A DNA stretch of 58,872 bases, the filler included, from Candidatus Rokuibacteriota bacterium (lineage in GTDB: Bacteria > JAUVQV01 > DATDCY01): NCBI GenBank assembly GCA_031406795.1. It is 4 parts of 4 records of this genome, joined end to end, with 100 filler letters (N's around TTAATTAATTAA, not from the genome) between each part and the next. Parts side by side here need not be neighbours in the genome. Positions count along the whole stretch, not along the records: positions 38,965 to 58,872 come from JANOHV010000267.1; 3 more parts are not named here. One strand, written 5' to 3'. The number at the start of each line of letters is the position of its first letter. Position 1 is the first letter of the stretch. Of the stretch, positions 6,874 to 58,394 are shown piece by piece. Position numbers and translations under genes: made by a program. The notes below the pieces were generated by a model. It worked only from the letters and a program-made list of their open reading frames with translations. It ran no database searches and was not told the DNA's origin.

Positions 6874-6891
6874 TACGAAATTTATCAGCGG

Positions 6892-6907: not shown

Positions 6908-6974
6908 ATTCCGACCAGTCGAACGGCGAAGGTGCAGTGGGGCATCCGCCGAACGAAGCACAGGAGGAATTGAG

Positions 6975-38964: not shown

Positions 38965-38966
38965 GC

Positions 38967-40327: not shown

Positions 40328-40348
40328 ACAGGAATGATCCGAGTATTC

Positions 40349-40462
40349 GGGCGGGAGTAAATCCCGCCCCTACATTGTTCTCGATCCGGATTCTAACCGG
40401 ATGGAACCCCGCCCAGGCATCGTCAACGATCCGGGTTGTAGGGGAGGGTTTCACACCCTCCC
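40349..40462. repeat. Inverted pair of GTAG-type REP palindromes (REPIN-like)
   Basis: GGGCGGGAGTAAATCCCGCCCCTACA (40349-40374) and TGTAGGGGAGGGTTTCACACCCTCCC (40437-40462). Confidence 0.7.
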
Positions 40463-40529
40463 ATGAGAAATTTCAAATATCTCCGATTCGAAGGTTTTCA
40501 AGGATCCGCACAACACGAAAGGAAACGGC

Positions 40530-43150: not shown

Positions 43151-43156
43151 CCGGCG

Positions 43157-44605
43157 ATGTCGCCGCTCGACGAGCGCCGCATCCTGCTCGTGCACCCCCT
43201 CGGGTACGGGGCCTCCTCCGCCGCTGGCGACATCTCGCGCAAGGCGAACATCATGCCGCCGCTCGGACTGGCGATGCTGGCGGCCTACCTGGAGCGGCGC
43301 GGGTTCACCGCCGACATCGTCGACTGCTACGCCGACCCCGCCGCCGACCGGGGCATCCGCGAGTACCTGAGCGACCGCCGTCCGGCGCTGCTCGGCTTCT
43401 CGTGCACCACCTCATCGTTCCTCGACGGGGTCCGTCTCGCGACCGCAGCCAAGGAGCTGTTGCCCGGAGTGACCACGGTGTTCGGCGGGCCGCACGTCTC
43501 CGCGCTACGCGAACAGGTCCTGCGCGATTACCCCGCGGTGGACCTGGTGGTGGTCGGCGAGGGGGAGGAGACGCTGTGCGATCTGCTCGAGGGCGGGGCC
43601 GCCGCGCCCAAGGGGGTGCCCGGGATCGTCTACCGCGACAGCGCCGGCGAGCCGCTCTTCACGGGGCGCCGGAAGACCAGCCTCGAGTTGGACTCGCTGC
43701 CGCTTCCGGCCTACGACAAGCTCAAGGGCTATCCCGGCGCCTACAGCCTGCCGATCTTCAACTACCCGCGCACGCCGAACACCAGCTGCATCAGCAGCCG
43801 CGGCTGCCCGTACGCCTGTTCCTACTGCGACCGCTCGGTCTTCGGGCGCAGCTTCCGCTACAACTCGGCCGAGTACCTGTACGAACACCTGCGCCACCTT
43901 CACGAGCGCTACGGCATCCGCCACATCAACTTCTACGACGACCAGTTCACCTTCCACCGGGCGCGCGTCGAGAAGTTCTGCCAGCTGATGCTCGAGAAGC
44001 CCCTCGGCATGACCTTCAACTGCGCCGTGCGGGCCGAGCACGTCGACCCCGCACTGCTGGCGCTGATGAAGCGCGCCGGCTGCTGGATGGTCAGCCTGGG
44101 CATCGAGACCGGGGACGAGCAGCTGCTCGCGCAGCACCGGCAGCGGCCGAATCTCGACCTGCTGGCGCAGACCATCCGCGCGATCGCGGCGGCCGGCATC
44201 CGCACCAAGGGGCTGCTGATGATGGGCCTGCCCGGGGAGAGCGAGGCGAGCATCCGTCGCAGCATGGACTACGTCTTCTCGCTGCCGCTGGACGATTTCA
44301 ACCTCTCCAAGTTCACGCCGTTCCCCGGCGCCCCGCTCTACGAGACGATCCGGGAACTCGGCGAGTTCGACGAAGACTGGGAGAAGATGGACTGCATGCA
44401 CTTCCAGTTCGTGCCGCGGGGCATGACGCGGGAGCGGCTCGAGGAGCTCTTCATCCTCTTCTACAAGACGCACTTCAAGCGCCCGCGCGTCTTCTTCGGC
44501 TATCTCGCGATGCTGTGGAAATCGCCCGACTCCTGGCGGCGCTTCCTCGCGGATCTCGGCTCCTACCTCAGCTTCACGCGCAGCAACAAGCGCCTGGGCA
44601 ACTAG
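43157..44605 (+). CDS. B12-binding radical SAM protein
   Basis: PPLGL..LAAYL, GGPH.S, GEGE, SRGCPYACSYC, FYDD.F, GIETG, GLPGE. Confidence 0.92.
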   Translation: MSPLDERRILLVHPLGYGASSAAGDISRKANIMPPLGLAMLAAYLERRGFTADIVDCYADPAADRGIREYLSDRRPALLGFSCTTSSFLDGVRLATAAKELLPGVTTVFGGPHVSALREQVLRDYPAVDLVVVGEGEETLCDLLEGGAAAPKGVPGIVYRDSAGEPLFTGRRKTSLELDSLPLPAYDKLKGYPGAYSLPIFNYPRTPNTSCISSRGCPYACSYCDRSVFGRSFRYNSAEYLYEHLRHLHERYGIRHINFYDDQFTFHRARVEKFCQLMLEKPLGMTFNCAVRAEHVDPALLALMKRAGCWMVSLGIETGDEQLLAQHRQRPNLDLLAQTIRAIAAAGIRTKGLLMMGLPGESEASIRRSMDYVFSLPLDDFNLSKFTPFPGAPLYETIRELGEFDEDWEKMDCMHFQFVPRGMTRERLEELFILFYKTHFKRPRVFFGYLAMLWKSPDSWRRFLADLGSYLSFTRSNKRLGN

Positions 44606-44614
44606 GCGCGCACC

Positions 44615-45763
44615 GTGGACACGGCACCCGCGCGCCTGCTCGTCGCAATCCCCGTCTACAACCACGGCCGGACGCTGCGCGAGGTCGTGCAGCGCGCGCT
44701 GGCCGTCCACCCCGACGTGCTCGTCGTCGACGACGGGAGCACCGACGGGGGCGGGGAGACCCTGCAGGGGCTGCCGGTGCGCGTGCTGAGGCACGCATGC
44801 AATCTCGGCAAGGGGCAGGCCATCCTGACCGCCGCGCGCGAGGCGCAGCGGCTCGGCATGACCCATCTGGCAACCATCGACGCGGATGGCCAGCACGACC
44901 CGGCGGACCTGCTGAACTTCCTCCCGCTGCTGAAAAGCGCGCCTGAAGCGCTGGTGGTCGGCACACGGCGCTTCGGCGCGGATGTCCCCGGCCTGTCGCG
45001 CTTCGGCCGTTCGTTCTCGAACTTCTGGCTGCGGGTGCAGACCGGCGTCGATCTCGGCGACACCCAGAGCGGCTTCCGCGTCTATCCGGTCGCCGTGCTG
45101 CTCGAACTGCCGCTGCGCGAGTCCGGCTACACCTTCGAGAACGAGGTGCTGGTGCGGGCGGCCTGGGCGAAGGTGCCGCTGCGCGAAGTGAGCATCTCGG
45201 TGATCTACCCGTCGGACCGCGTGTCGCACTTCCAGCTGTTGCGCGACAACGCCCGCGCCAGCGCCCTGAACGCCCGGCTGACGATGCGGACCATCCTCCC
45301 CTGGCCGCACCACACCCTGGCCGCCGACCGGCCCCCGGGCGTCTCCGCGCTGCATCCGCTGCGCGCCATCCGGGTCCTGCTCTCTGAGAACACCACCCCC
45401 CGGGAGCTGGCGCTGGCCGCGGCGCTGGGTGTCTTCATCGGCACGTTGCCGCTGATCGGCGTCCACACCCTCGTGCTGCTGATCGCCGCCAGCTATCTGC
45501 GCCTGAACCGCCTGGCGACGATCACCGCGAGCCAGCTCACCATCCCGCCGTTCGTCCCGGCGCTCGCGATCGAGGTCGGCTACTACCTGCGCCACGGAAC
45601 ATTCCTGACCGAATTCACGCTGAAGACCATCGGCAGCGAAGGGCTCGACCGGCTCTGGGAGTGGTTTCTCGGGTCGCTGCTGCTCGGCCCGGCGCTCGGG
45701 CTGGGCGTCGGTGCCCTTACCTATCTGGCGGCCGCGCTATTGCGCCGGCGCTCGAATGCCTGA
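44615..45763 (+). CDS. Glycosyltransferase family 2 fused to DUF2062
   Basis: IPVYN, VVDDGSTD, N.GKG.A, DADGQH, DTQSGFRVYP; C-terminal membrane domain (TP.ELALA.ALG.FIG..P). Confidence 0.88.
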   Translation: MDTAPARLLVAIPVYNHGRTLREVVQRALAVHPDVLVVDDGSTDGGGETLQGLPVRVLRHACNLGKGQAILTAAREAQRLGMTHLATIDADGQHDPADLLNFLPLLKSAPEALVVGTRRFGADVPGLSRFGRSFSNFWLRVQTGVDLGDTQSGFRVYPVAVLLELPLRESGYTFENEVLVRAAWAKVPLREVSISVIYPSDRVSHFQLLRDNARASALNARLTMRTILPWPHHTLAADRPPGVSALHPLRAIRVLLSENTTPRELALAAALGVFIGTLPLIGVHTLVLLIAASYLRLNRLATITASQLTIPPFVPALAIEVGYYLRHGTFLTEFTLKTIGSEGLDRLWEWFLGSLLLGPALGLGVGALTYLAAALLRRRSNA

Positions 45764-46709
45764 GGAGCCGGGCCCGCCGCGCGAAATCCGGCGCACCTGG
45801 AGCAGCCGCAGCGTCGGCTCCCGGCTGCAGCACGGCTCCTTCCACCTGCTGCTGCGCGCCGGCGGACTGCGCGCCGCGTACGCGCTGCTCTACCCGGTCG
45901 TCGCCTGGTACACGCTCTTTCGTCCGTCGGTTCGCCGCCGGGGCTCTTACTACCTCGCGCGCCGGTTCCCCGGCCGCTCGCTGCCCGGGCGGCTGAGCGA
46001 CTCCTACCGCCACTCGCTCGAACTCGGCAAGGCGCTCGTGGACCGCGACGCCGTCGGCCTGCTCCCGCCTGGCGCGATCACGGCCACCCTGCGCGAACGC
46101 GGTGTGCTCCTCGATCTGCTGCGCGAGGGACGCGGCCTGATCCTGCTGATCTCGCACGTAGGCTCCTGGCAGGCGATGATGCCGGCGCTCTCGCTGCTGG
46201 ACGCCCCGGTCAACCTGCTGATCCAGCGGGAGGAAGGGGACATCGATCGCCGCTACTTCGAGCTGCGGGGCAAGGCCTGCCCGTTCCGGATCATCGACCC
46301 GCGCGGGTTTCTCGGCGGCGCCATCGAAATGGTTGCAGCGCTCAAACGCGGCGAAGTGCTCTGCGTGATGGGGGACCGCGTCTTCGGCGACGCCCGCGGC
46401 GCGCTGCCGGTCGATTTCCTGGGCGCTCCCGCCCCGTTCCCGACCGGGCCCTACAAGATCGCGGCGGCCACCGGGGCGCCGATCGCCGTGCTCTTCTCGG
46501 TGAAGACGGCGCCGGCGACCTACCAGATGGTCTTCGCCGGCGTGCTGCGCGTCCCGCAGAGCGCCGGCCGCGGGGCGCAGGCCTACCGGCCATACATGGA
46601 GGAGTACGTGCGCCTCCTGGAGGGGTGCGTGCGAGACCACCCCTTTCAATTCTTCAATTTCTTCGACATGTGGGCCGTCCCGGACGGAGAACCGAAGGAG
46701 AACCGATGA
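45756..46709 (+). CDS. LpxL/LpxP-like (lysophospholipid) acyltransferase
   Basis: G.ILL.SH.G.W, L..GE.LC.MGDR, FLG..A.FP.GP, P.QFFNF.D.W. Confidence 0.85.
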   Translation: MPEEPGPPREIRRTWSSRSVGSRLQHGSFHLLLRAGGLRAAYALLYPVVAWYTLFRPSVRRRGSYYLARRFPGRSLPGRLSDSYRHSLELGKALVDRDAVGLLPPGAITATLRERGVLLDLLREGRGLILLISHVGSWQAMMPALSLLDAPVNLLIQREEGDIDRRYFELRGKACPFRIIDPRGFLGGAIEMVAALKRGEVLCVMGDRVFGDARGALPVDFLGAPAPFPTGPYKIAAATGAPIAVLFSVKTAPATYQMVFAGVLRVPQSAGRGAQAYRPYMEEYVRLLEGCVRDHPFQFFNFFDMWAVPDGEPKENR

Positions 46710-46744
46710 GGCTGCACTCGCACCGTCAGAATACGACTCGTTTC

Positions 46745-46823
46745 GTCATTCCGGCGAAATCCGGGATCCCGTCATCTGCTGGAGACGCAATTCCGCTGAA
46801 CACCGGTTTTCGCCTGAGTGACG
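46745..46823. repeat. Degenerate CGTC-type REP inverted pair
   Basis: CGTCATTCCGGCGAAATCCGGGATCC and, inverted, CTGAACACCGGTTTTCGCCTGAGTGACG. Confidence 0.55.
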
Positions 46824-46843
46824 AATTATTGCCTGACCACCGA

Positions 46844-47695
46844 ATGACGTCTCGAGGGCTGCGACTCTGCCGCGCCGTCGTCGCGTGCGCGGCGCTGATC
46901 TCCGTCTCGCTGCCCGCGGCGGCAGCGGGCGGGCCGAAGGTGCTGCACGTGCCGGCGGATCTCTTCGCCGCAAGCGGGCCCCTCGGCGCGCTCGAGATCG
47001 ACGGCTGCCGGATCCTGCTCGCCGACGGGCCGGGCGGCTCGGCGCTGCGTGTCTCGCCGGCCATGGCCAGGCGCGGATTCCGCGACCTCCCCTTCTCGCT
47101 GCCACCGCTCGAACAGGAGGTGGTCTTCGGGCCGCTCGCGACTACGCTGCGCCTGAGAATCCCCGGGCGCGACGCGGCCGACCCGGCGACTACGATTCAG
47201 AGCACCCGCGCGGCGCTGCGGATAGCCGGCGCAAGCATCGAGCTGACCGTCGTCTTCGAGGATCAGGGACCGGAGCTGACCGGCGAGTACTACGCCACCG
47301 ACCCCGACACCGGCAAGGGCGGGTGGGTGCATGCGCTCGACGTGGAGGCCGACGACCTGAGGATCGCGGTCTCCTTCCCGATCCTGGCGCAGGGCGCCAC
47401 ATTGAGTCTCGGCGCGCCGACGGCGAGCGCCGCTTTCTCGTTCGCCGTTTCCGCGAGCGGGTTCGCCGGGCTGGCTCTGGACGGCACCTTCGCGAAGGAC
47501 GTGGTGAAATCCGCCCTCGAGCGCGCCGTCGCGGACGCGCTCAAACTCGATGCCTACCGCGCGCCCCTCGCCGCCGCGGTCACTACCTGGCTCCGCGAGG
47601 GCCCCTTCCAGGGTCTGGCGCTGCGGGAAATCAGGCTCCAGCCGACTGCGGACGGCGGCCTGGATCTGCAGGCGATCACGATCGCGGATCCCTGA
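46844..47695 (+). CDS. Hypothetical exported protein
   Basis: Signal-peptide-like N-terminus (AVVACAALISVSLPAAAA), host-like codon usage; no family recognised. Confidence 0.55.
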   Translation: MTSRGLRLCRAVVACAALISVSLPAAAAGGPKVLHVPADLFAASGPLGALEIDGCRILLADGPGGSALRVSPAMARRGFRDLPFSLPPLEQEVVFGPLATTLRLRIPGRDAADPATTIQSTRAALRIAGASIELTVVFEDQGPELTGEYYATDPDTGKGGWVHALDVEADDLRIAVSFPILAQGATLSLGAPTASAAFSFAVSASGFAGLALDGTFAKDVVKSALERAVADALKLDAYRAPLAAAVTTWLREGPFQGLALREIRLQPTADGGLDLQAITIADP

Positions 47696-47705
47696 CTGGC
47701 TCTTG

Positions 47706-48011
47706 ATGAAGCACTGTACCCTTGTGTTGCTGCCGGGGCTCGACGGCACGGGCGAGCGGTTCGGTGCGCCCCGCGGTCGTCGCGGCGCGTGTCCGAGCGC
47801 TGATGAACGTCGCACCAGGGCGCAACTTCGGGCAACGGCGCTCCCGCTGCTCTACCTGCAGGCGCTGCGGCGCGAGATACAGGATCTGCGAAACGACGGG
47901 TACACCACGGACTCGATGCGGGAGTTCCTGCGGGACATGATCGCGAACCTCAACGGGATGTACCACGTCATGACGGTGAACCCGAGGCTCCGGGCGGTGG
48001 AGCGGCCCTGA
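47706..48011 (+). pseudogene. Internally deleted alpha/beta-hydrolase remnant fused to an unrelated tail
   Basis: LVLLPGLDGTG and PLLYLQA motifs only ~30 aa apart, nucleophile region missing. Confidence 0.45.
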
Positions 48012-48053
48012 CGCCTTCTGCCTCGGAGAGCCATGCCCACGAGAATATGAGGC

Positions 48054-48089
48054 TTGACGGCAATGCAGCATATTGCTACATTTGTAGCA
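48054..48089 (+). promoter_or_regulatory. Sigma70 promoter with overlapping palindromic operator
   Basis: TTGACG-17 nt-TACATT; perfect palindrome TGCTACA-TT-TGTAGCA (48074-48089) covering the -10. Confidence 0.7.
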
Positions 48090-48117
48090 TTATGAACATG
48101 CGGTCAGGAGGTGGGGT

Positions 48118-48516
48118 ATGGCAAGTCCCATGAGATTGGCTTCAGCACTGATAGCGGCAGCGGAAAAGGAAGCGGCAATCCAGAAACGCTCGGTTCCCAA
48201 ACAGATCGAATTCTGGGCGGAATTGGGCCAGGCAGTGGAGCACACCATCGGATTCGCTGACGTAATCGCCATTACCCAGGGCCTGAAACGGATCGAACTG
48301 GAGCCTCTGGTTTCAGCCACCGCTGATCCGGACGATGTGTTCGACAACCTGGAGGCACGCAGGAGAAGCGGAACCCTTTCCGAAAAAGTCACCTCAGCCG
48401 CTTTCTCTTACGAAGCCAGCAAACGCCGTCCGGGTTTTCTGGAGAGGGTGAACAACCTCAGCGGGAAACGGGAAACCGGACGATTTCAAAACGGTGAATT
48501 CACTGTTCACCAATGA
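48118..48516 (+). CDS. ParD-like antitoxin family protein
   Basis: P.RL...L...A......KRS.PKQIE.WA.LG (RHH-type ParD-like); GGAGG RBS. Confidence 0.75.
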   Translation: MASPMRLASALIAAAEKEAAIQKRSVPKQIEFWAELGQAVEHTIGFADVIAITQGLKRIELEPLVSATADPDDVFDNLEARRRSGTLSEKVTSAAFSYEASKRRPGFLERVNNLSGKRETGRFQNGEFTVHQ

Positions 48517-49103
48517 CTGAAATCAGACAGCTCTGGCTGCTCGCAGGTGGTAATGGCGCCGGGAAATCCACCTTCTACCGCTTGTTTCTGGAACCCCGCG
48601 GCATCAAGTTCATCAATGCGGATCTGATCGCCAGGGAGATTGCCCCGGAACATCCTGAAGCCGCGAGCTATAAAGCCGCCAGCCTGGCAGAACGTTTTCG
48701 ATCGGACTTGCTGAATCAGGGCCTGTCTTTTTGTTTTGAAACCGTGTTCTCCCATGTATCGAAAATCGACTTCACCGGCAGAGCCAAAGCCCTGGGCTAT
48801 GAGGTGATTCTGGTCTTCATCCATCTTGAAAGCCCGGAACTCAACGCAGCCCGGGTTAGCCAGCGAGTCAGCGAAGGCGGCCACGATGTGCCTGCCGACA
48901 AGATCCGCAGCCGAATTCCCCGGACCATGAAGAACATCGCGACCATTCTCCCTGTAGTAGATTCAGCCTGGCTCTTGGACAACTCGTCCCGGGAAAACCC
49001 CTTTCAACAGGTCGCCGTGGTCCGTCTGGGCCGTAAACGCATCCTGGTCGATCCCCTGCCGGCCTGGGCTGAAGAAATCCTCCGCGCCTGCCATGAGCAC
49101 TAA
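48513..49103 (+). CDS. Zeta-toxin-like P-loop kinase/ATPase
   Basis: LAGGNGAGKST, FINAD.IA, SF.FETVFS, RV.QRV..GGH.VP..KI..R, DNS. Confidence 0.85.
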   Translation: MTEIRQLWLLAGGNGAGKSTFYRLFLEPRGIKFINADLIAREIAPEHPEAASYKAASLAERFRSDLLNQGLSFCFETVFSHVSKIDFTGRAKALGYEVILVFIHLESPELNAARVSQRVSEGGHDVPADKIRSRIPRTMKNIATILPVVDSAWLLDNSSRENPFQQVAVVRLGRKRILVDPLPAWAEEILRACHEH

Positions 49104-52100
49104 CTACTGTGGTGACACTCGCAGCACCGGGGAAACCGGGCAAGACGGTCTCGTCGCGGTCGTGGCCGAGAAGCCGTCGGTCGCTCGCGATATCGCGGCA
49201 GTGCTCGGCGCCACGAAAAAGGGCGGCGGTTGCCTGATCGGCGCCCGTCACATCGTCACCTGGGCGATCGGCCATCTCGTCGCGCTACCGGAGCCGCACC
49301 AGATCAAGCCCGAGTGGAAGGCCTGGCGGCGAGCGCTGCTGCCGATGCTGCCGGACATCTGGCCGCTGGTCGTCGCCGAGCGCGTGAAGGAGCAGTACGA
49401 GGCGGTTCGCAGAGTCCTCACCGACACACGCGTTGCCGAAGTCGTCTGCGCGACCGATGCCGGCCGCGAAGGGGAGCTGATCTTCCGGCAACTCTACGAA
49501 GCGACGGGCTGCACGAAGCCGGTGAAACGTCTGTGGATCTCCTCCCTGACGCCCGATGCGATCCGCGCTGGCTTTGCCCGCCTGCGACCCGCGCGAGACT
49601 TCGACCGATTGGCCGACGCGGCCCGCGGCCGCAGCCGCGCCGACTGGCTCGTCGGCATGAATTTCTCCCGGGCCTTCACGCTCGCGGGCGACGAGATGCT
49701 CACCGTCGGCCGGGTGCAGACTCCGACCCTGGCCATGGTCGTCGAGCGGGAACTGGCAATCCGGGCCTTCGTCCCCCAGGAGTACCTCGAGGTCGTCGCG
49801 ACGTTCGAGGGGGAGAACGGACACTACCGCGGCACGTACTTCGACCCCGCGGTCAAGGAAGACGGCGGCACGCGGTTCCCGCAGGACGGCGGGGCGGCCC
49901 GGTGCATCGTTTCGCGCGCGACAACAGGCGCCACGGCGATTGCCGCCGTCGACGCACAGACGAGGCGGACGCCGCCGCCGCTGCTCTTCGACCTCACGGA
50001 ACTACAGCGCCACGCGAATCGCCTCCTCGGCTGGAGCGCCAAGAAGACGCTCGAGGTGGCGCAGCGGCTCTACGAGGTGAAGAAGGCAATCACCTATCCG
50101 CGCACCGATAGCCGCCACCTGTCGAAAAGCGTTGCCGAGACGCTGCCGGAGGTGCTCCGCGCCCTCGCGCCCGCGTACGGCGCGCTCTTTGCACCCGGAA
50201 CCCTCGAGCGGCCGCTCGGCAGCCGCTTCGTCGACGACGCGAAAGTCACCGACCACCACGCGATCATCCCGACCCGGCTCGTGCCCGACAGCAAAGGTGA
50301 CGAGCGCGCGCTCTACGACGTGATCGTCAGGCGTCTGATCGCCGCCTGGCATCCGGAGCACGTCGCGGCGACGACAACCGTCGTCACGGCGATCACCGGC
50401 CGCGAATTCCTCGATCGCTACCGTTCAAGTGGCACGATGGTGCAACAGACCGGTTGGAAGGCGGTCGAGCCGGAGCCGCAGCGCCGCAAAAAGAGCGAGG
50501 AAGAAGACGACGCCACGCCGACGCTGCCGCCCGGCCTCAAAGTCGGCCAGCCGCAGCGGGTCGCCGCGATCGACACCCGCGAGCGAAAAACCCGGCCGCC
50601 GAAGCGCTTCACGGATGCCACGCTGCTCACCGCGATGGAGACCTGCGGCAAGACGCTCGACGAGAAAGAACTTGCCGCGGCGATGCGCGAAAGCGGCCTG
50701 GGCACGCCGGCGACCCGGGCGGATATTCTCGAGAACCTGCTGGCGCGCGCCTATCTCGAGCGCAGCGCCAAGACACTCGTCGCCACCGACAAGGGGATCA
50801 GGCTGATTGCGCTTGTCCACCCGTCGGTGAAGAGTCCGGCGTTGACGGGGCGCTGGGAGGCCCAGCTGGCGCGGCTTCAGCGCGGCGAGGGGCGGCTCGA
50901 CGCCTTCATGGCCGGGATCGAAGAATATGTGCGCGAAATCGTCGGCGAGACGGTGCCCGCTCGGAGCTGCGCGCCGCCGGGGTCCCCCGCTTCGCGCCAC
51001 CCCTTTGTCCAGAGCGTGATCCAAGGCGACGAGTCCCTACGAAACGTTCCGCCAACCCGCGAGCCGGTTCCCGCGGCCGGCCTCGGCGAGCTGCTCACGC
51101 GCGTCTTCGGCCACACGGGCTTCCGGCCGTTCCAGGAGGACGTCTGCCGCGCCGTGACCGCGGGCCGCGACGCGCTGCTCGTTATGCCGACCGGCGCCGG
51201 CAAATCGCTCTGCTACCAGCTCCCCGGACTCGCGCGCGCCGGCACGACGCTGGTCATCTCCCCCCTGATCGCGCTGATGGAAGACCAGGTCGCCAAGCTG
51301 CGAGCGCTCGGGCTGGCCGCCGCACGCATTCATTCGGGCCTCGAGCGTCTGGCCGCGAACCAGGTTTGTTGCGATTACCTGGAAGGCAAGCTCGACTTCC
51401 TGTTCATCGCGCCGGAGCGGCTCGCGTTCAAAGGCTTCACCGAGATGCTCGCGAAGCGCACGCCGGCGCTGGTCGCGGTGGATGAGGCGCATTGCATTTC
51501 GCACTGGGGTCACGACTTCCGCCCCGACTACCGGCTGCTCGGCGCACGGCTGCCTTCATTGCGGCCCGCGCCGGTGATCGCCCTGACCGCCACCGCAACG
51601 CCGCGCGTCCAGGACGACATCAAAGCGCAGCTCGGACTGACCGGCGACGCGCGTTTCATCCACGGCTTCCGCCGGACGAATATTGCCGTCGAAGTGCTCG
51701 AGGCGCCGCCCAGCCGGCGCGCCGAGCTGGTGCTCGCGGCGCTCGCGGACCCGGCGCATCGGCCGGCAATCGTCTATGCGCCGACCCGCCGCGAGGCCGC
51801 GGCGCTGGCAGCCGACCTGCAGAGCCACGTCCGCGCGGTCGCCTACCACGCCGGGCTGGCTTCGAAAGAGCGCGATGAGGTGCAGCGCCGCTTCCTCGGG
51901 GGCCGCGCCGAGGTCATCGTCGCGACGATCGCTTTCGGGATGGGGATCGACAAGCCGGACGTCCGGACCGTCATCCACACCGGCCTGCCCGGCAGCGTCG
52001 AGGGGTATTACCAGGAGATCGGACGCGCGGGTCGGGACGGTCTGCCGTCAAAGGCAATCCTGCTGCATTCCTACGGGGACACGCGCACGCATGAATTCTT

Positions 52101-53067
52101 TCTCGGGCGCGACTATCCCGAGCCGGCAATCCTCGAGAAGGTGTTTGGCGGACTGCGGCCGGAGCCGATCGCTGCGGAGGAGCTGTGCCGCGGCGTGAAG
52201 ATCGACGCCGAGGTGTTCGAGAAGAGCCTCGAGAAGCTCTGGATGTTCGGTGGCGCCCTCGTCACGCCCGAGGGGGACGCCTCTCGCGGCGTCGAGGGCT
52301 GGCGCCGTCCCTACGAGGAACAGCGAGAGCACCGCAAGACCCAGCTCGACCTGATGCGCCGCTTCGCAAACGGCTCTTCCTGCCGGATGCTCCAGCTCGT
52401 CAGGCACTTCGGCGACCAGGAAGACTCCGGCGCCCGCTGCGGCATCTGCGACATCTGCGCGCCCGCAGGCGGCACCGTGACCCGACTGCGCCGCGCCGAC
52501 CCGCAGGAACAAGCCGCGCTCGGCCGCGCACTGGCGCTGCTGCGCGGTCGCGACGGCCAGGGGACCGGGCAGCTCCACCGCGAGGTGCAGGGAGCGTTCC
52601 CGAAGCTGGACCGGCGGATCTTCGAGGCGCTTCTCGGCGGCCTGGCGCGCGGCGGCCTTGTCAGGATCGAGGACGACCAGTTCGAGAAGGACGGCCAGAC
52701 GATCCGCTTCCACCGCGTGTACCTGACGGATCAGGGGCGGCGGGCCGACGCGGTGATCGAGGCGCAGATTCCTGTTGCGCCACCGTCGACAAGCACCGGG
52801 AGGCGGGGGAAGAAGTTGTCAGCGAAGACTGGCGGGGTGACGCAGCGGGAGAAGTCGCCAGCGCTTTTCGAGGCACTCCGCCAGTGGCGGCTCGAAGAGG
52901 CCCGGCGGCGGCAGGTGCCGGCCTTCAGGATCCTGAGTAACCAGTCGCTGCTCGACATCGCGGCCAGAAAACCGAGCACTAACGCCGAGCTGCTCGAGGC
53001 CTCCGGGATCGGCCCGTCCCGCCTCAAGCAGTACGGGAAGCGCCTGCTGCAGATCGTGCGGGGTTGA
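49093..53067 (+). CDS. DNA topoisomerase III - RecQ helicase - HRDC fusion protein (1324 aa)
   Basis: Type IA motifs AEKPS, ATDAGREGE, GRVQTPTL, ITYPRTDS, GLGTPATRA; RecQ motifs MPTGAGKSLCYQ, DEAHCIS.WGHDFRPDY, AFGMGIDK.DVR, QEIGRAGRDG, Zn-binding CR..CGICDIC; C-terminal HRDC; single uninterrupted ORF. Confidence 0.93.
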   Translation: MSTNYCGDTRSTGETGQDGLVAVVAEKPSVARDIAAVLGATKKGGGCLIGARHIVTWAIGHLVALPEPHQIKPEWKAWRRALLPMLPDIWPLVVAERVKEQYEAVRRVLTDTRVAEVVCATDAGREGELIFRQLYEATGCTKPVKRLWISSLTPDAIRAGFARLRPARDFDRLADAARGRSRADWLVGMNFSRAFTLAGDEMLTVGRVQTPTLAMVVERELAIRAFVPQEYLEVVATFEGENGHYRGTYFDPAVKEDGGTRFPQDGGAARCIVSRATTGATAIAAVDAQTRRTPPPLLFDLTELQRHANRLLGWSAKKTLEVAQRLYEVKKAITYPRTDSRHLSKSVAETLPEVLRALAPAYGALFAPGTLERPLGSRFVDDAKVTDHHAIIPTRLVPDSKGDERALYDVIVRRLIAAWHPEHVAATTTVVTAITGREFLDRYRSSGTMVQQTGWKAVEPEPQRRKKSEEEDDATPTLPPGLKVGQPQRVAAIDTRERKTRPPKRFTDATLLTAMETCGKTLDEKELAAAMRESGLGTPATRADILENLLARAYLERSAKTLVATDKGIRLIALVHPSVKSPALTGRWEAQLARLQRGEGRLDAFMAGIEEYVREIVGETVPARSCAPPGSPASRHPFVQSVIQGDESLRNVPPTREPVPAAGLGELLTRVFGHTGFRPFQEDVCRAVTAGRDALLVMPTGAGKSLCYQLPGLARAGTTLVISPLIALMEDQVAKLRALGLAAARIHSGLERLAANQVCCDYLEGKLDFLFIAPERLAFKGFTEMLAKRTPALVAVDEAHCISHWGHDFRPDYRLLGARLPSLRPAPVIALTATATPRVQDDIKAQLGLTGDARFIHGFRRTNIAVEVLEAPPSRRAELVLAALADPAHRPAIVYAPTRREAAALAADLQSHVRAVAYHAGLASKERDEVQRRFLGGRAEVIVATIAFGMGIDKPDVRTVIHTGLPGSVEGYYQEIGRAGRDGLPSKAILLHSYGDTRTHEFFLGRDYPEPAILEKVFGGLRPEPIAAEELCRGVKIDAEVFEKSLEKLWMFGGALVTPEGDASRGVEGWRRPYEEQREHRKTQLDLMRRFANGSSCRMLQLVRHFGDQEDSGARCGICDICAPAGGTVTRLRRADPQEQAALGRALALLRGRDGQGTGQLHREVQGAFPKLDRRIFEALLGGLARGGLVRIEDDQFEKDGQTIRFHRVYLTDQGRRADAVIEAQIPVAPPSTSTGRRGKKLSAKTGGVTQREKSPALFEALRQWRLEEARRRQVPAFRILSNQSLLDIAARKPSTNAELLEASGIGPSRLKQYGKRLLQIVRG

Positions 53068-53073
53068 AGGGCT

Positions 53074-53106
53074 GAAAACCGGGACAAATAAATCTGTCCC
53101 GTTTTC
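53074..53106. terminator. Hairpin after the topB-recQ gene (terminator or REP-like)
   Basis: GAAAAC(C)GGGACA-AATAAATC-TGTCCCGTTTTC inverted repeat. Confidence 0.5.
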
Positions 53107-53132
53107 GAGTTTCCTTTACACTGCCATCAACC

Positions 53133-53600
53133 ATGTCCTACGAGACTGAGTGGCAGACCCGCAAGAAACGCATCGACAGCCGTCTCAAGGCCCTCGGCTG
53201 GTCGATCAGGCCGTATTCCGACCACCTGAACCTCGAAACCCTGACCGCCACCGCCGTCGAGGAACTTCCCGCCAGGAACGGCCCGGCGGACTACGGACTT
53301 TTCGTCGGCGGTCAACTCCTCGGCATCATCGAGGCCAAGAAGGTCACCGTGAACCCCCAGAACGTCCTCGAACAGGCGAAACGCTACGCCGCCGGGGTCA
53401 ACCAGCCTGCCGGTGACTGGGACAGCCTCAGGGTGCCATTCCTGTACGCCACCAATGGCACCATCGTCTGGCACCTCGACACCCGGCAGGCAAAGCGGGT
53501 GTCCCGGACCCTCAGTAATTTCCACACCCCGGACGCGATGAGCGGCCTGTTCACGCAAGACTTGCGCTCCGCCGCTGCCTGGCTCAAGGGGACACCCCCG
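53133..53600 (+). pseudogene. hsdR: Type I restriction enzyme HsdR N-terminal remnant
   Basis: E..TR..RID..L...GW, ADY.LF......IEAKK, EQA.RYA, PF.YATNG, FHTP; recognisable similarity ends near 53600, no helicase domain, no hsdM/S. Confidence 0.75.
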
Positions 53601-53694
53601 AGCAGATCGACACGGTGGTTTCGCCAAGACCATTGGACGGAGTATTACCCAAAAATCACTTGTCAAGACCGAAAAGCACCAAACGGTCAACGGT

Positions 53695-54108
53695 TCATGC
53701 AAGCTTTGTTTTCAGCCCCACCGTCATTGCCGCGGCTACCCGGCGATTATCCGCGGAGGCGAATAATTCGGCGCCCCAGGCCACGGCGCATGCGACATGG
53801 AGCGCGTCCATGGTGCGCACGGGCGTGGTTTCCAGGATTTCGATGCTCGTGCGCACGACGTCCGGGGTCAGGTTGATAACGACGGTATCGCGCACATCCT
53901 GAGCGAGGCTCTGCTTGGCCTGGGCATAGCCGCGGCGGGTCAGGCTTTTCTCGCGCAACCGACGGTTCAACGCCGAGATGATTTCCGGAACGCAAATGAC
54001 GCTCAGGCAGAGCTCATCTGCTTGAGCGCAGAGGATCTCGACCTCTTCGCTCCCTGGCTCTTCAACAAAGCGCTTCGCGAACGCCGAGGAATCAAGGAAG
54101 AGCTTCAT
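53695..54108 (-). CDS. vapC: VapC-family PIN toxin
   Basis: MKLFLDSSAFAKRFVEE.GS, E..SALNR, RTMDALHVACA, F.SAD.R. Confidence 0.88.
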   Translation of the reverse strand: MKLFLDSSAFAKRFVEEPGSEEVEILCAQADELCLSVICVPEIISALNRRLREKSLTRRGYAQAKQSLAQDVRDTVVINLTPDVVRTSIEILETTPVRTMDALHVACAVAWGAELFASADNRRVAAAMTVGLKTKLA

Positions 54109-55300
54109 GCTCCCGCTCCTCGATGATCGCGGCCGCCAAACCTGCACCCGTTGTCGCCAAGTGCAATGCCGGGCGTTTCCATGACGGTTGTTCAACCGTC
54201 TTATCCGCCGAATCGTAACGCTTCCGCAGGTCGTTGTTCCATTCGTGCTTCAGGCGGCCGTCGTGCTGCAATCGTCCGACCACGATCCCGGCATCTATCC
54301 TGTGCACATCGGCAAACCCACGAACGGAATGGGGGGTGTAGATCCCATGCTTGAGAAAACGCTCATAGACCTTGGGTGGAATAAGTGTATCGGCGGCGAA
54401 ACGGTCGGCTGCAACCTCCTGTTCCACCTGCTCAGGAGCGGCGCAGCCATCTTCAAGAAACACGGATTGACGGTCGTGCAAAAGGAGATGACCTAATTCG
54501 TGAAAGAGACTGAACCAGAAGATATCGGCCCACTTCCCGCGGATGGTCAGCAGGATCACTGCCTTTTCGCGCCCGAGCCAGAAGGTCGCCCCGTGGGCCT
54601 TCGTGCCGGGGAAATGGGGGCAGACAACCAAGGCAACCCCGGCGCTGGCCAGGAGTTCGCTCAAGGGCCCCAGGAATTCGTTCGGCGTCAGTGGGGTCAT
54701 CGCCCTGATCTTTGTGAGGGATTCCTGGAGTAAAGGCTTATTGAAAGGAGCACACTCAATCGCCTGGGCCCTGATCTCCCCCATCCTGAGCCATGCGGCG
54801 ACAGCATGGCACGAATGCCCCTGTCTCGGTGACTTGCCGTAACGGAACGCAGCCTGGTAACGCCGGACCTCGAGCACAGAATGCAGCGTGGCTACGCCGA
54901 AGAAACGCTGCAACTCCGCGACTTTCTCGATCGGCTGCGTGTGCCGTGCAACCGCGCCAAGCTTCACCAGATCCTGATAACAGAAGGTATCGACAAGTCC
55001 GGCCTCGGCTTTCAATAGCTCCTGTTCGCGCGCTTTCTCCTGCCTGACGAGGGAGAGACGGTACTCGGACTCCAGCCCGAGCCAGATATGGGCCGGCACT
55101 CCGACCACTTTCTCGAGCTGAAGGGCGGTGTCCGCGGTGATGGCCTTCTCGCCCTTGAAGATCTGGCTCAGCTTGGAGGCAGGACGGGCCATCCTCGTCG
55201 CCAACTCGTCCTTGGTCATCCCAAGCTCCCCGATGACCTCCTCGAGGTACTCCCCCGGAGGGATGGCCAGATCGGAATGTGCCACCGACTCAGTCCTCAT
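54092..55300 (-). CDS. higA: HigA antitoxin fused to ImmA/IrrE peptidase, with a VapB-like C-terminal tail
   Basis: AIPPGEYL.E.....GM...ELA.RM, IT.DTALQLE.V.G.PA..WL.LE..Y; D.FWFSLFHELGH; E..AD.FA. Confidence 0.88.
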   Translation of the reverse strand: MRTESVAHSDLAIPPGEYLEEVIGELGMTKDELATRMARPASKLSQIFKGEKAITADTALQLEKVVGVPAHIWLGLESEYRLSLVRQEKAREQELLKAEAGLVDTFCYQDLVKLGAVARHTQPIEKVAELQRFFGVATLHSVLEVRRYQAAFRYGKSPRQGHSCHAVAAWLRMGEIRAQAIECAPFNKPLLQESLTKIRAMTPLTPNEFLGPLSELLASAGVALVVCPHFPGTKAHGATFWLGREKAVILLTIRGKWADIFWFSLFHELGHLLLHDRQSVFLEDGCAAPEQVEQEVAADRFAADTLIPPKVYERFLKHGIYTPHSVRGFADVHRIDAGIVVGRLQHDGRLKHEWNNDLRKRYDSADKTVEQPSWKRPALHLATTGAGLAAAIIEEREHEALP

Positions 55301-55592
55301 AGTGCTTGCTCACCCCCTCGATCATAACGATTTCGAGCCGATCGCCTTCCAGCGTGAAGATCAAGCGCTGGTAATCCGTCAGATTGACCGCCCACTGGCC
55401 CTGGCGTTTACCCTTGAGCTGGTGGCACCTGAGTGCGGGGAGTCGTTTCAACTCATCGATGTCGCGGGCCGCCTTGATGATATTGACGCGCTGGATGTAC
55501 TTCCGCGCCACGGGTTCCCCATAGGCTTTGACAGCTTCGCCAGAGCGTTCATAGTAACTTTGCAGCTTCCGGGTCCGGAACCTGACGTCCAC
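55290..55592 (-). CDS. higB: HigB toxin (plasmid maintenance killer, RelE fold)
   Basis: V.F....L, H.LKG.R.GQWAV.L....RLIF, IE.VS.HYE; upstream of higA. Confidence 0.88.
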   Translation of the reverse strand: MDVRFRTRKLQSYYERSGEAVKAYGEPVARKYIQRVNIIKAARDIDELKRLPALRCHQLKGKRQGQWAVNLTDYQRLIFTLEGDRLEIVMIEGVSKHYED

Positions 55593-55620
55593 GCGCCCTC
55601 TCACATGCCTTCATAATCCT

Positions 55621-55639
55621 CTTTACCTTTAGGGTAAAG
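55621..55639. promoter_or_regulatory. Palindromic operator upstream of higBA
   Basis: CTTTACC-TTTAG-GGTAAAG. Confidence 0.6.
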
Positions 55640-55879
55640 ACAATATGGGGCGTGATCAGCAATCTGTCAATAGTCTTCTATACCTCAGGGGTGAAGAACT
55701 GTTTGCGACATCTGTGCGGGCGCCTCATCGACCCCCTCACCTCCTCCGACACCCCGGGCCGTTTCTCATCGTCATCCGACTGCGGGATGACTGCGCTCGG
55801 ACAATATCAATCTGCTGCGGATGACTTACGAGGAACCGGAAGAAGCGTTGCCTCCGGTGTTTTCCGCCGGGAGAGCACC

Positions 55880-56821
55880 CTAGAAATTGAAGTGCAGGCC
55901 GAGGCCGAGGTAGTCGATCTCGTCGGTGTAGAATTGACCGTTCGGCGAGTGCCCCTGGAAGTATTCGACGAGCACCTGAAGATTCCTCGTCCCGAGCCAG
56001 CGCTGGAACTCGAGCCCCGCCCGCAGCGACACATCCGCCGCCCAGGCGTTCTCCTCCCGGTACTGGACGTCGGCGGCCGCGATGGGGCGGATCCCCGACC
56101 CCGACCCCGGCCACGGGCTGCGGAACTCGAGGCCCGACTGCAGCGACAGGGGCTTCAGGGTGGACGGCTCCCGCTCGAAGATGGAGCCGCCGCCGACGCA
56201 CAGCCGCAGCACGTCTCCGAAGAACTCGTAGGAGAGCCGGAGGTCGACGGCCTGGTAACTCAGGTTGACGCGGTTGTCGCCGGAGTTGCTGAGGATGTAC
56301 TCGTCCCCGAGGTGGCTGCTCTGGTGGAACAGGCGGCCCAGGGCGGAGAACCGGTCCCAGCGGAAGCCGAGCACGACCCCGACGATGTAATCGGCGTTGA
56401 CCAGATCGCTCGACGGCGAACTGAGGTCGAAGAAAGAGAAGACACCGGCCTGTATTCCCGCCTCCCACCACGCCTTGCCGATCTTGTCGCGGTAGACGAT
56501 GAAGCTCTCGCCGAAGCTGACGGCTGCCACGCTGCCGAGCTTCGGATCGTCGAGGTACCCCTGGTAGGCGAGGGCAAAGTGGGGCCAGCGCGGGTCCGCG
56601 ATGAGCGGCTTGAAGAGATCGCCGCCCGGCAGAAATCCGATCGCGAGTTCCCGAGGCGCAGTCGCGTCGACCGTCCCGGCCGCGGCGTAGCCGGCGAGAG
56701 AGGCGTCGGTCGCGGTATCGGCCGCCCGTCCCGCCGGGGGCGCCGCGAGCACCAGCAGCAGGACCGCGCCCAACGCGAGGATTCGCTTCGCTTTCGTGTT
56801 CGAGTCGCGCGCAGCGTCCAT
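55880..56821 (-). CDS. DUF1207-like outer-membrane beta-barrel protein
   Basis: Signal peptide, LF.PLIADPRWP.F, LVNADY, R.FHQSSHLGDEY, G.SP.GQFY, C-terminal GLHFNF. Confidence 0.75.
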   Translation of the reverse strand: MDAARDSNTKAKRILALGAVLLLVLAAPPAGRAADTATDASLAGYAAAGTVDATAPRELAIGFLPGGDLFKPLIADPRWPHFALAYQGYLDDPKLGSVAAVSFGESFIVYRDKIGKAWWEAGIQAGVFSFFDLSSPSSDLVNADYIVGVVLGFRWDRFSALGRLFHQSSHLGDEYILSNSGDNRVNLSYQAVDLRLSYEFFGDVLRLCVGGGSIFEREPSTLKPLSLQSGLEFRSPWPGSGSGIRPIAAADVQYREENAWAADVSLRAGLEFQRWLGTRNLQVLVEYFQGHSPNGQFYTDEIDYLGLGLHFNF

Positions 56822-56822
56822 C

Positions 56823-57908
56823 TCAAACCACCGGCGGCGGGAAGTACCGCTCGAGGCGGGTGAAAAGCGACTTGTCCCCGTCGAGCCTGATCTCGCCGCT
56901 CGCCAGCGCTTCGCGGACGTCGATCTGCCGCATGAACACCTTGGCCCAGGTAGCCGCCGGGGTCGTCAAGCGCAGATCGCAGGTCGCGGATTTCTCCTGC
57001 GCCAGGGTCGCCTTGCCGTGGTCCACGCTCACGCGGAAGTGCCCGCCCGTGTCGGTGAAATCGAACTGCAGCACGAACCGCTTCTTCGCCGTGGCCACGG
57101 TATCGACACTGCGCACCATTTCGCTGAGCAGTACCCGCATGTCGCCCAGCACCAGCGCGCGCACCGCCGAGACGTCGAGCGCCCGGGGCCCCAGGCTGCG
57201 GGCATGCTCCCAGTAGATGTTGGCGTACTGCTGGAAGTGGTGCAGGTCGGACGACAGCGGCGTCGCGGCCCGGGCGGCCGTTTCGGCGGTGATCTCCCCT
57301 CGGGTGGCCAGTTCGATCCCCGCCTGTTCGAACGCCGTTTCGATCACCTTGATGGTCTTCGGCTTTGCCAGGTCGAACTGCAGCAGGTAGGACTCGGGCC
57401 GGATGATCCCCCCGGCCAGCTCCGTGCCGATCGCCGCGGCGAACAGTTCGAAGGCCTTCGTCGCGGCAGCGAAATTCTCCTCGCCGCGGAACGCGCCCAC
57501 CAGCAGATACGCGAGCTTCTTCGGCCAGTGCTCCGGGTCGCGCACCGTGTTGCGGATCAGTCCCCCCGGCGTGGGCACGAAGCCTTCCTTGGTCCAGGCG
57601 AAGGTCCGGTCGAGGAAGACCTTCACGAAGCTGCTCGGGCCGTAGGCGTTGAGAGGCGACAGGAACACGACGATGTCCGCCGCCTGGAATTTCTTCATGA
57701 CCGAGGGCATGTCGTCTTTGTGGATGCAGACGCCCGGGTGCACCAGCCAACAGCTGTAACACCCCACGCAGTGCTTGATCTGCAGCGCGCACAAGTCGAC
57801 CACGTCCAGCTCGGCGCCGCCGCTGCTGACTCCGGCCAGGAACAGTTTCGACAGACGTTGCGTATACCCGTTCTTGCGGGGGTTGCCCATGAGCGCGAGG
57901 ATCTTCAC
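56823..57908 (-). CDS. Iron-sulfur flavoprotein (flavodoxin-like) fused to SCP2 lipid-binding domain
   Basis: G.PRK.GYT, CVGCYSCW....G.C..KDDM, AD......P, K.FLDR; C-terminal LQF.F...G......D.G...L.G.I.LDGD (SCP2). Confidence 0.8.
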   Translation of the reverse strand: MKILALMGNPRKNGYTQRLSKLFLAGVSSGGAELDVVDLCALQIKHCVGCYSCWLVHPGVCIHKDDMPSVMKKFQAADIVVFLSPLNAYGPSSFVKVFLDRTFAWTKEGFVPTPGGLIRNTVRDPEHWPKKLAYLLVGAFRGEENFAAATKAFELFAAAIGTELAGGIIRPESYLLQFDLAKPKTIKVIETAFEQAGIELATRGEITAETAARAATPLSSDLHHFQQYANIYWEHARSLGPRALDVSAVRALVLGDMRVLLSEMVRSVDTVATAKKRFVLQFDFTDTGGHFRVSVDHGKATLAQEKSATCDLRLTTPAATWAKVFMRQIDVREALASGEIRLDGDKSLFTRLERYFPPPVV

Positions 57909-58378
57909 GGTTTCCCCTGCATCATGGCCAGGGTCAGGGTCCCCTTGGCGATCACCTTGCGCTTCACCATGGCTTCAACCTCGTAGGTGTAGAGTGCGCC
58001 GAAGTTCCGGTCGGCCCGGGCGGTCATTTCCAGGGTCTCCCCCGGATAGGCGGGATTGACGTACTTCATGTTCGCGGCGGCCAGGTGAAAGATCTCAGGA
58101 GTTTCGCTGGCCTCGCCACCCCTGAGCTGCTTGGTGAACCCCCAGAGCAGGCCGCTGGACTGGGCCAGCGCGTCCGTGACCAGCACCCCGGGCATGATCG
58201 CCAGCCCGGGAAAATGCCCGGCGAAGAACGCCTCGTCGGGCCTGATGAACCATTCGGTCGCGATCGTCTTGTCGGGCACCATCTTCGTCACCTTGTCCAC
58301 GAACAGGAAGGGCGGCCGGTGCGGCAAGATGGCACGGATCTGTTCCAGCGTGAACGAATGCGTCGTCGTGCCTTTCAC
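57905..58378 (-). CDS. 3-hydroxyacyl-ACP dehydratase (FabZ family)
   Basis: ILPHRPPFLFVD, FF.GHFPG..IMPGVL..DALAQ (Asp at the catalytic acid position). Confidence 0.88.
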   Translation of the reverse strand: MKGTTTHSFTLEQIRAILPHRPPFLFVDKVTKMVPDKTIATEWFIRPDEAFFAGHFPGLAIMPGVLVTDALAQSSGLLWGFTKQLRGGEASETPEIFHLAAANMKYVNPAYPGETLEMTARADRNFGALYTYEVEAMVKRKVIAKGTLTLAMMQGKP

Positions 58379-58394
58379 GCGCCACCCCGGCGGT

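Follow-up and report, generated by a model that had tools for sequence, protein, structure and literature searches.

A conserved bacterial protein that joins topoisomerase III to a RecQ helicase in a single chain

RecQ helicases and topoisomerase III (Topo III) cooperate universally and, as exemplified by BLM and TOP3A, this is of medical importance. To our knowledge, every study of the partnership has dealt with assemblies of several proteins, in which recruitment and stoichiometry complicate work on mechanism. Here, we describe an open reading frame (ORF) that encodes both enzymes as one polypeptide. The ORF lies in a 58,872 nucleotide stretch of DNA (hereafter, the window) from Candidatus Rokuibacteriota bacterium, assembly GCA_031406795.1. 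Note that only window positions 38965 to 58872 (19,908 bases) correspond to contig C278 of the organism's own genome, G000, which is a metagenome bin of 278 contigs with 3% contamination. Positions 1 to 38964 are off that contig and features are not to be read across the boundary between 38964 and 38965.

As separate proteins, RecQ unwinds DNA and Topo III passes strands, acting on the single strand exposed. Passages of two publications (PMC7245102 and PMC2647321) describe both this division of labour and its outcome: DNA is catenated or decatenated, converging forks are resolved and, in eukaryotes, double Holliday junctions are dissolved. The Escherichia coli system, comprising RecQ and TopB with SSB, uses the same two enzyme families and the same chemistry is expected of the fusion. 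In E. coli, however, two proteins meet on SSB-coated DNA, while the fusion is one polypeptide. Compared to the E. coli pair, the fusion also has a non-canonical RecQ, an insert of ~65 residues, glycine in place of the second TOPRIM aspartate, and no Topo III tail. The same two families are adjacent in Listeria monocytogenes, on one strand and 23 nucleotides apart, as separate genes with recQ first. In the Listeria record L121 (NZ_LR134400.1), recQ occupies positions 2980-4752 and the Topo III gene 4776-6929, with 41% identity to the fusion. Although classed as a plasmid, this record includes guaB and pbpD1. We came across no study of this gene pair.

Two further systems offer instructive parallels. 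In eukaryotes, the Sgs1-Top3-Rmi1 and BLM-TOP3A-RMI1/2 assemblies likewise physically couple a RecQ helicase, bearing an HRDC domain, to a Topo III-class enzyme. The substrates expected for the fusion are also the same: hemicatenanes, intermediates of late replication and double Holliday junctions. Coupling in this eukaryotic dissolvasome is via the helicase N-terminus and a loop in the oligonucleotide-binding (OB) fold of RMI1, whereas the fusion is coupled covalently. Moreover, the topoisomerase half of the fusion is of the bacterial TopB type, being closer to E. coli Topo III than to human TOP3A in Foldseek comparisons. Reverse gyrase is, like the fusion, a natural single chain of a superfamily 2 (SF2) helicase-type module and a type IA topoisomerase. 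However, its helicase-like module is minimal, and has a latch, while the RecQ of the fusion is complete, from the Zn site through the winged helix to HRDC, and the topoisomerase is placed N-terminally. The fusion also differs in having a seemingly flexible joint, with a variable linker, and hosts labelled as soil, freshwater or sediment lineages. In the relevant section of PMC7245102, hyperthermophiles are said to have 'uniquely' fused helicase and topoisomerase units, as reverse gyrase. Because the fusion is called unique there, the family that we describe seems to have gone unnoticed, and its existence corrects that published view. The word 'RecQ' is absent from the main text of a 2024 review of type IA diversity (PMC10969213), and no Topo III-RecQ fusion is mentioned in a 2009 phylogenomics review (PMC2647321). 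The original prediction knew of no biochemical characterisation of such fusions and, similarly, our full-text literature search, with subscription journals outside its scope, found no description of a natural Topo III-RecQ fusion. What is known is the RecQ-Topo III system; what is apparently new is its conserved single-chain bacterial form, which seems to be unstudied.

The original prediction, made from the DNA alone, described an uninterrupted ORF of 1324 codons with a complete topoisomerase core, a Pro-rich linker, and a complete RecQ helicase including the Zn site, winged helix and HRDC domain. This architecture is real and intact. The ORF begins with ATG, contains 0 internal stop codons, and has the coordinates shown in Table 1. 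A Pfam architecture search detected Toprim, Topoisom_bac, DEAD (residues 678-840), Helicase_C (889-983), RecQ_Zn_bind (1075-1122) and HRDC matches. The positions given for Tyr335 (in the motif ITYPRTDS), Walker A (MPTGAGKS), DEAH and the linker all agree with our translation. GC content at the first, second and third codon positions (0.71, 0.50 and 0.86) follows the typical coding pattern for the contig. The overall GC content of the gene had been called host-like and, at 0.69-0.70, it matches the conserved flanks of the contig; the immediate flanks are lower, at 0.59-0.63. We conclude that one ORF encodes a full Topo III core connected, through 44 residues of predicted disorder, to a full RecQ.

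Table 1. Positions of the fusion gene, its parts and neighbouring features in the window
Feature	Position	Strand	Residues	Basis or remark
Whole ORF: Topo III core, linker and RecQ helicase	49093..53067	+	1324 in total	Open frame, Pfam, NCBIfam
TOPRIM, with E26 and D122-A-G124-R-E126	49156..49545	+	22-151	Pfam Toprim, 36.4 bits; alignment to E. coli Topo III
Type IA core, domains II-IV; Tyr335 at 50095-50097	49603..50910	+	171-606	Pfam Topoisom_bac, 360 bits
Linker 1, rich in Pro/Ala/Gly/Ser, predicted disordered	50950..51081	+	620-663	pLDDT <50 for residues 624-651
Short dispersed genus repeat, in frame inside linker 1	50966..51018	.		28 further matches in own genome
RecQ helicase core; Walker A 51184-51207, DEAH 51481-51492	51082..52107	+	664-1005	Pfam DEAD and Helicase_C
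Winged-helix-like insert (helix-helix-helix-strand-strand) in Zn-binding subdomain	52123..52287	+	1011-1065	Both AlphaFold models
Zinc site	52381..52458	+	Cys1097, Cys1116, Cys1119, Cys1122	E. coli RecQ Cys cluster; RecQ_Zn_bind, 35.3 bits
Predicted winged helix at RQC position, long beta-hairpin	52501..52725	+	1137-1211	AlphaFold, pLDDT ~90
Linker 2, basic and disordered	52738..52860	+	1216-1256	pLDDT 46-69; family length 0-81 residues
HRDC	52861..53058	+	1257-1322	Pfam HRDC, 76.7 bits
Variable stretch of 8.8 kb that holds the fusion	48012..56824	.		Comparison with same-genus G001, which has 78 bp instead
ParD-like antitoxin	48118-48516	+		Pfam
Zeta_toxin/AAA_33-like kinase; stop codon TAA at 49101-49103	48513-49103	+		Pfam; 4-nucleotide overlap with ParD-like ORF

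The N-terminal half passed the cut-offs of two NCBIfam Topo III models. These were NF005829 (score 644.4, cut-off 597) and TIGR01056, for topB, across residues 23-621 (562.5, cut-off 515.75). In alignments, residues E26, D122, E126, Y335 and R337 correspond to E. coli Topo III chain positions 7, 103, 107, 328 and 330. We take position 328 to be the catalytic tyrosine and, in general, the aligned positions of E. coli Topo III and RecQ to be the catalytic ones. Foldseek searches, using a predicted structure of residues 1-1200, returned E. coli Topo III as the best match (E ~1e-44 to 1e-45, TMt 0.81-0.84). Matches to Topo I (~1e-31 to 1e-32) and human TOP3A (E ~6e-30) were weaker, so that the predicted toroidal four-domain fold is nearer to Topo III than to Topo I. 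The alignment to E. coli Topo III spans chain positions 4-605, in chains 640-659 residues long, and the linker replaces the remainder. On this basis, the Topo III core would have no C-terminal DNA-binding tail of its own; the flexible linker and RecQ stand there instead.

The C-terminal half passed the cut-off for the RecQ family (TIGR00614 recQ_fam, 388.1 bits, cut-off 219.8) and fell below that for the canonical RecQ equivalog (TIGR01389, 497.8 versus 640.2). By these scores, the C-terminal half belongs to the RecQ family without being orthologous to the canonical RecQ of bacteria. When it was aligned with 1OYW, the catalytic core of E. coli RecQ, the two matched at K704 of the Walker A motif, the DEAH box at residues 797-800, the aromatic loop, the sequence QEIGRAGRDG and all four Zn cysteines. 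The AlphaFold model of this half has a predicted local distance difference test (pLDDT) score of 92.6 and a predicted template modelling (pTM) score of 0.83. It contains two RecA lobes, the insert, the Zn site, a winged helix and HRDC. In Foldseek comparisons, the model matched RecQ and BLM cores (4TMU, E 1e-34; 1OYW, TMt 0.74), with 584-594 columns aligned to RecQ cores containing a winged helix. The Pfam RQC profile did not detect the winged helix of the fusion; the model predicts one at this position, with three helices and a beta-hairpin. Compared to E. coli RecQ, the alignment has ~65 extra residues at the winged-helix-like insert. The match to the RecQ_Zn_bind profile is truncated in the fusion and also in P0154, a stand-alone member of the same clade, while another RecQ encoded by G000, on contig C248, matches fully.

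An apparent fusion might arise from an assembly chimera at a repeat in the linker, a contaminant contig or a decaying pseudogene. Indeed, G000 is a bin of many contigs with some contamination, a dispersed repeat sits exactly at the junction, and frameshifts occur in 5 of 78 related loci that span the junction. We inspected the junction, where the original prediction had called for read mapping, in sequencing data. Logan contigs from two runs, belonging to one study that is possibly the source of the assembly, bridge the topoisomerase core, linker and DEAH box. These independent, per-run contigs are 1871 nucleotides each, cover positions 49633-51503, and have 2-5 differences. Furthermore, both halves of the gene are 86% identical, at the nucleotide level, to a single continuous gene of 1385 codons on L109, a metagenome contig from the same genus, and both are ~87% identical, at the protein level, to the homologue P0002. 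Since both ends of the G000 contig are syntenic, at 86% identity, with the same-genus genome G001, the contig is not a bin contaminant. The repeat itself, found as dozens of copies (85-97% identity) in the same-genus genomes G001-G003, ties the gene to the genus. Finally, the frame is open and ratios of nonsynonymous to synonymous substitution (dN/dS) are low. An artefact is, hence, already contradicted and we consider it very improbable.

The repeat also informs on how the linker behaves. The corresponding segment is missing from P0002 and, therefore, the linker accepted an in-frame repeat insertion. RNA folding of the repeat was not superior to that of shuffled sequence (z = 0.74), so no role for RNA structure is supported. 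In homologues P0007 and P0125, the linkers, of ~125 residues, consist of peptide repeats in tandem, suggesting that repeats have expanded, or repeat elements inserted, elsewhere in the family. Family-wide, linker 1 (measured from the last topoisomerase helix to RecQ motif 0) is unconserved and ranges from 11 to 153 residues, with a median of 52. It is rich in proline (17%), alanine (13%), glycine (13%) and serine (10%). The model of residues 1-1200 has pLDDT 91.0, with both halves confidently predicted, and pTM 0.60, compared with 0.83 for the RecQ half alone. While pTM is a weak proxy, this hints that the halves are joined flexibly and not through a fixed interface.

Full-length homologues had been sought as a check on the fusion, with myxobacteria guessed as hosts. 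Many were found, across several phyla that include Myxococcota. We searched a collection of 5.8 billion proteins and refer, in what follows, to the other best matches listed (n = 119, 1302-1477 amino acids). All 119 contain Topoisom_bac, DEAD, Helicase_C and RecQ_Zn_bind, and 118 also have HRDC. Names, where given among these matches, were 'DNA topoisomerase 3/III' with the exception of one 'RecQ family helicase'. Contigs representing one genome per species yielded at least 653 confirmed relatives, for which the best 80 loci were analysed. The junction is spanned in 78 of these 80 loci, and in 73 the gene is in one frame. According to record titles, 53 of the best 80 are Acidobacteriota-type, 16 are Myxococcota or 'delta', 7 are Competibacteraceae or Gammaproteobacteria and 4 are others. 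Among the best 150 representatives of 50%-identity clusters, compared over query residues 330-1130, 53 had both halves and 10 were fragments crossing the junction. These 63 representatives reach down to 36-39% identity. In the phylum of G041, where only two candidates per genome were scored, the fusion was present (E <=1e-200) in 6, or perhaps 7, of 301 evenly sampled genomes, which is a lower bound. We conclude that the fusion belongs to a large, old and conserved family, distributed over several phyla, and is not a rarity.

Conservation extends to the active sites. Across 105 full-length fusions, with 37-87% identity, residues D122, E126, Y335, R337 and K704 are invariant, as are the DEAH box and every cysteine of the four-Cys zinc site. 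At least 90% of these proteins retain E26; HRDC is short or missing in 9. In a broader set of 160 family proteins, of at least 1100 amino acids, the Tyr motif occurs in 158, PTGxGKS in 157 and DEAH in 159. Comparison with the same-genus L109 gene gave dN/dS values of 0.20 for the topoisomerase core, 0.12 for the helicase core and 0.24 for the Zn and winged-helix regions. Values were 0.58 for HRDC and 0.46-0.60 for the linkers, with linker 1 at 0.60. These ratios show purifying selection on both halves. A FastTree phylogeny of 58 full-length fusions required 5 changes of phylum label, where the minimum possible is 4. Hence, the fusion gene is old and mostly vertically inherited, as would fit a cellular gene that has long been retained.

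Relatives of the individual halves were also found. In a tree of the RecQ half, built by a quick method from 101 rows, fused proteins are intermixed with stand-alone ones. Well-supported branches force a minimum of 14 changes, though many of the representatives may be contig-end fragments. For 8 stand-alone RecQs of the clade located on large contigs, the surrounding 10 kb contained nothing that matched Topo III (E up to 1e-8) and, thus, such stand-alone proteins are real. Short 'topo-only' relatives, with 55-75% identity and 574-725 amino acids, are in many cases labelled partial, and the Holophagales locus L087 has two frame changes. Other N-termini also occur in this RecQ clade. P0167 (1400 amino acids) combines it with a Ser/Thr kinase and nine Sel1 repeats, while L088 (4711-7575) encodes a protein of 954 amino acids, 70% identical to the RecQ half, with a 430-residue N-terminus that has no assignment.

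To understand whether the genome has other enzymes of these types, which the original prediction had proposed as a check, we searched G000 for separate topB and recQ genes. No other topB-class match was detected. The remaining type IA gene is TopA, which is divided between the ends of two contigs and has four Toprim_C_rpt repeats. Overall, of 6 genomes with the fusion, 5 (G000, G041, G042, G043 and G045) have nothing else that scores above the cut-off for topB. In the other, G044, a separate topB accompanies the fusion but there is no other RecQ. The acidobacterial genome G043 has two copies of the fusion, at C1:270397-273609 and C4:1123782-1126994, both frames of 1428 amino acids with near-identical scores.

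Together, these data favour a functional, bifunctional Topo III-RecQ enzyme, in which flexible tethering would permit RecQ-fed strand passage for decatenation and dissolution. We assign this interpretation a probability of roughly 0.7, and infer every activity of the fusion from its sequence. In the proposed mechanism, the RecQ half would spend ATP opening duplex DNA, or bind forks and junctions by means of its winged helix and HRDC, which would also supply substrate targeting. Unwinding would yield the single-stranded DNA that a type IA enzyme requires. The tethered Topo III core could then cut one strand, using Tyr335 and Mg2+ bound by TOPRIM, so that another strand or duplex passes the gate. 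The enzyme would thereby be expected to catenate and decatenate duplex DNA in a helicase-dependent manner, to unlink hemicatenanes and replication forks that converge, and to dissolve double Holliday junctions without producing crossovers. The tether may stand in for recruitment by SSB in E. coli, and for the Sgs1 or BLM N-terminus with RMI1 in eukaryotes. If so, it would act by providing a high local concentration, and not a rigid interface like that of reverse gyrase. More speculatively, the protein might be a self-sufficient, single-chain dissolvasome that needs neither SSB nor an RMI1-like partner, with RecQ translocation coupled to the gate. Coordination would then be set by the insert at residues 1011-1065 and the length of the tether, and the fusion would be the sole Topo III pathway in many Acidobacteriota and Myxococcota. 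We regard this extended version as possible but tentative. With respect to partners, no RMI1-like protein is encoded by the neighbouring genes in 81 loci.

The original prediction offered two functions: a coupled dissolution or decatenation machine and a new ATP-dependent topology enzyme. The former is best supported, with both halves conserved and under selection, and the fusion usually providing the only Topo III. The latter would involve allosteric coupling, as in reverse gyrase, such that ATP hydrolysis drives directional strand passage or net supercoiling. Helicase and type IA core are on one chain in both proteins, and both active sites of the fusion are conserved. The clade-specific, winged-helix-like insert could be a coupling element and, according to part of PMC7245102, separate RecQ and Topo III already alter the linking number of plasmids. 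Conversely, the domain order is opposite to that of reverse gyrase, the reverse gyrase model TIGR01054 (rgy) scored 104.2 bits against a cut-off of 471.7, and there were 0 reverse gyrase chains among the 48 Foldseek matches listed. Furthermore, the insert is not specific to fusions, given the same truncated RecQ_Zn_bind match in stand-alone P0154. The variable length and poor conservation of a linker predicted to be disordered, and the low pTM for residues 1-1200 despite confident halves, also disfavour such coupling. Hence, the second function is unlikely.

We turn now to the surroundings of the gene. In the same-genus genome G001, the variable stretch that holds the fusion is replaced by 78 bp. 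It contains the ParD-like and zeta-like pair, the fusion, an ORF with only an HSDR_N domain, a PIN gene, an HTH-IrrE gene and a DUF1207 gene. Within 48012-56824 there is no tRNA, no flanking direct repeat of at least 8 nucleotides and no integrase domain among the ORFs scanned. As first noted from the DNA, a zeta-toxin gene overlaps the fusion; the kinase ORF extends 11 nucleotides past the fusion start. The sole promoter-like site in positions 47900-53400 is at 48054-48082 and, as a consequence, the ParD-like, zeta-like and fusion genes may be co-transcribed. The hsdR remnant reported downstream is the HSDR_N-only ORF at 53133-53876. This encodes 247 amino acids, matches the domain at residues 48-120, and overlaps a convergent PIN ORF by 182 nucleotides at its 3' end. 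Either a remnant or an ORF called too long would be possible; the helicase part of an hsdR gene was not found near 53133-53876.

Such a location raises the possibility that the fusion serves a mobile element or anti-phage defence, either as a DpdF-like helicase of a DNA modification or restriction system or as an island maintenance gene. The gene overlaps the stop codon of a zeta-like kinase, shares its variable stretch with HSDR_N, PIN and HTH-IrrE genes (the last resembling PD-Lambda-2_B, E 1e-31), and was not found in three congeners. Its history may also include horizontal transfer, described below. Evidence from other loci points away from this role. In 81 loci, with 538 neighbouring ORFs, the commonest neighbour family occurred at only 6, and we found no dpd-type or other recurrent neighbour. 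Similarly, the ORFs scanned on the contig have no dpd-type domain, and the NCBIfam DpdF model NF041063 scored 206.9 compared to a cut-off of 550. Upstream of the same-genus copy on L109, ~80% identical, the ParD and zeta-like pair is missing. There, the fusion gene is between phosphofructokinase, hydrolase and SH3 genes and no toxin-antitoxin genes are present. Hence, the toxin-antitoxin neighbours are local to G000. No match from plasmids (at least 5000 matching records) or phages (70 records) covers 80% or more of the fusion protein, the phylogeny is largely vertical, and most genomes checked have no Topo III besides the fusion. For these reasons, we give a defence or mobile-element role a low probability.

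Comparison with related genomes suggests how the gene was acquired. The phosphofructokinase on L109 is 88-90% identical to copies in G000 and G002, and L109 shares the left-hand hydrolase remnant. Since L109 carries the fusion alongside these genus-like sequences, the gene was present in part of the genus before these members separated. The closest relatives outside the genus are Thermoanaerobaculia-type, namely L071, which is sister with 99% support, and G136. The fusion is 77% identical to that of G136, whereas TopA is only 43% identical; within the genus, TopA identity is 64-90% over matched pieces. This argues for an old horizontal acquisition, probably from Acidobacteriota.

Several observations weigh against a functional Topo III-RecQ enzyme for decatenation and dissolution, and should be considered together. 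First, the second TOPRIM aspartate (E. coli chain position 105) is replaced by Gly124, within the motif DAGREGE. The sequence ATDAGREGE dominates the family, being present in 150 of 160 long proteins, and CDAGREGE occurs in a Topo III that stands alone in L003, an unrelated genome. Hence, Gly124 is probably a functional subfamily variant and not damage. Second, G000 has two further RecQ-family genes, so that the cell does not rely on the fusion as its sole RecQ. One, on C248, is of canonical type (recQ_fam 534.6 bits, with full RQC and HRDC) and the other, on C103, has an N-terminal extension. Third, the fusion was not found in congeners G001-G003 (completeness 78-95%), and is absent from the syntenic site of G001; at the level of the genus, the gene is dispensable or accessory. 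Of 6 species from the same phylum in the collection, only G000 has it. Fourth, the genes around it in G000 are of toxin-antitoxin and defence-like types. Finally, the PADLOC DpdF profile PDLC02865 matches the fusion at 1563.7 bits. This profile has 1499 positions and matches over three stretches, in both halves of the protein. It was evidently built from Topo III-RecQ fusions, which makes the match circular, and may mislabel such proteins as Dpd defence genes.

Should the bifunctional enzyme be borne out, a natural single-chain version would provide a fixed 1:1 enzyme, from mesophilic bacteria, as a possible minimal model of chromosome untangling. The fusion opens questions concerning coordination between the helicase and type IA gate, whether tethering is sufficient for dissolution, and the structure of the full-length protein on a junction. 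Note that automatic annotation as 'DNA topoisomerase 3', along with the PADLOC 'DpdF' profile, hides or mislabels the family. Even if the enzyme is the sum of its parts, the result is a correction to annotation and a Rosetta-stone confirmation of the bacterial RecQ-TopB partnership.

Further observations concern the DNA around the gene. On the reverse strand, at 53695-55300, the PIN-domain ORF adjoins a gene with HTH_3 and Peptidase_M78 (ImmA/IrrE) domains, the source of the PADLOC match to PD-Lambda-2_B. An overlapping segment, 54213-55695, recurs with 85-96% identity on congener contigs G003:C272, G002:C89 and C145. Outside the variable stretch, the conserved flank at 40530-47695 contains two radical SAM genes of the B12-binding type, along with one GT2-DUF2062 and one lipid A acyltransferase-like gene. 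The opposite flank, at 55880-58871, encodes DUF1207, FMN_red-SCP2, FabA-like and acyltransferase proteins. Together, the flanks look like a lipid-related cluster.

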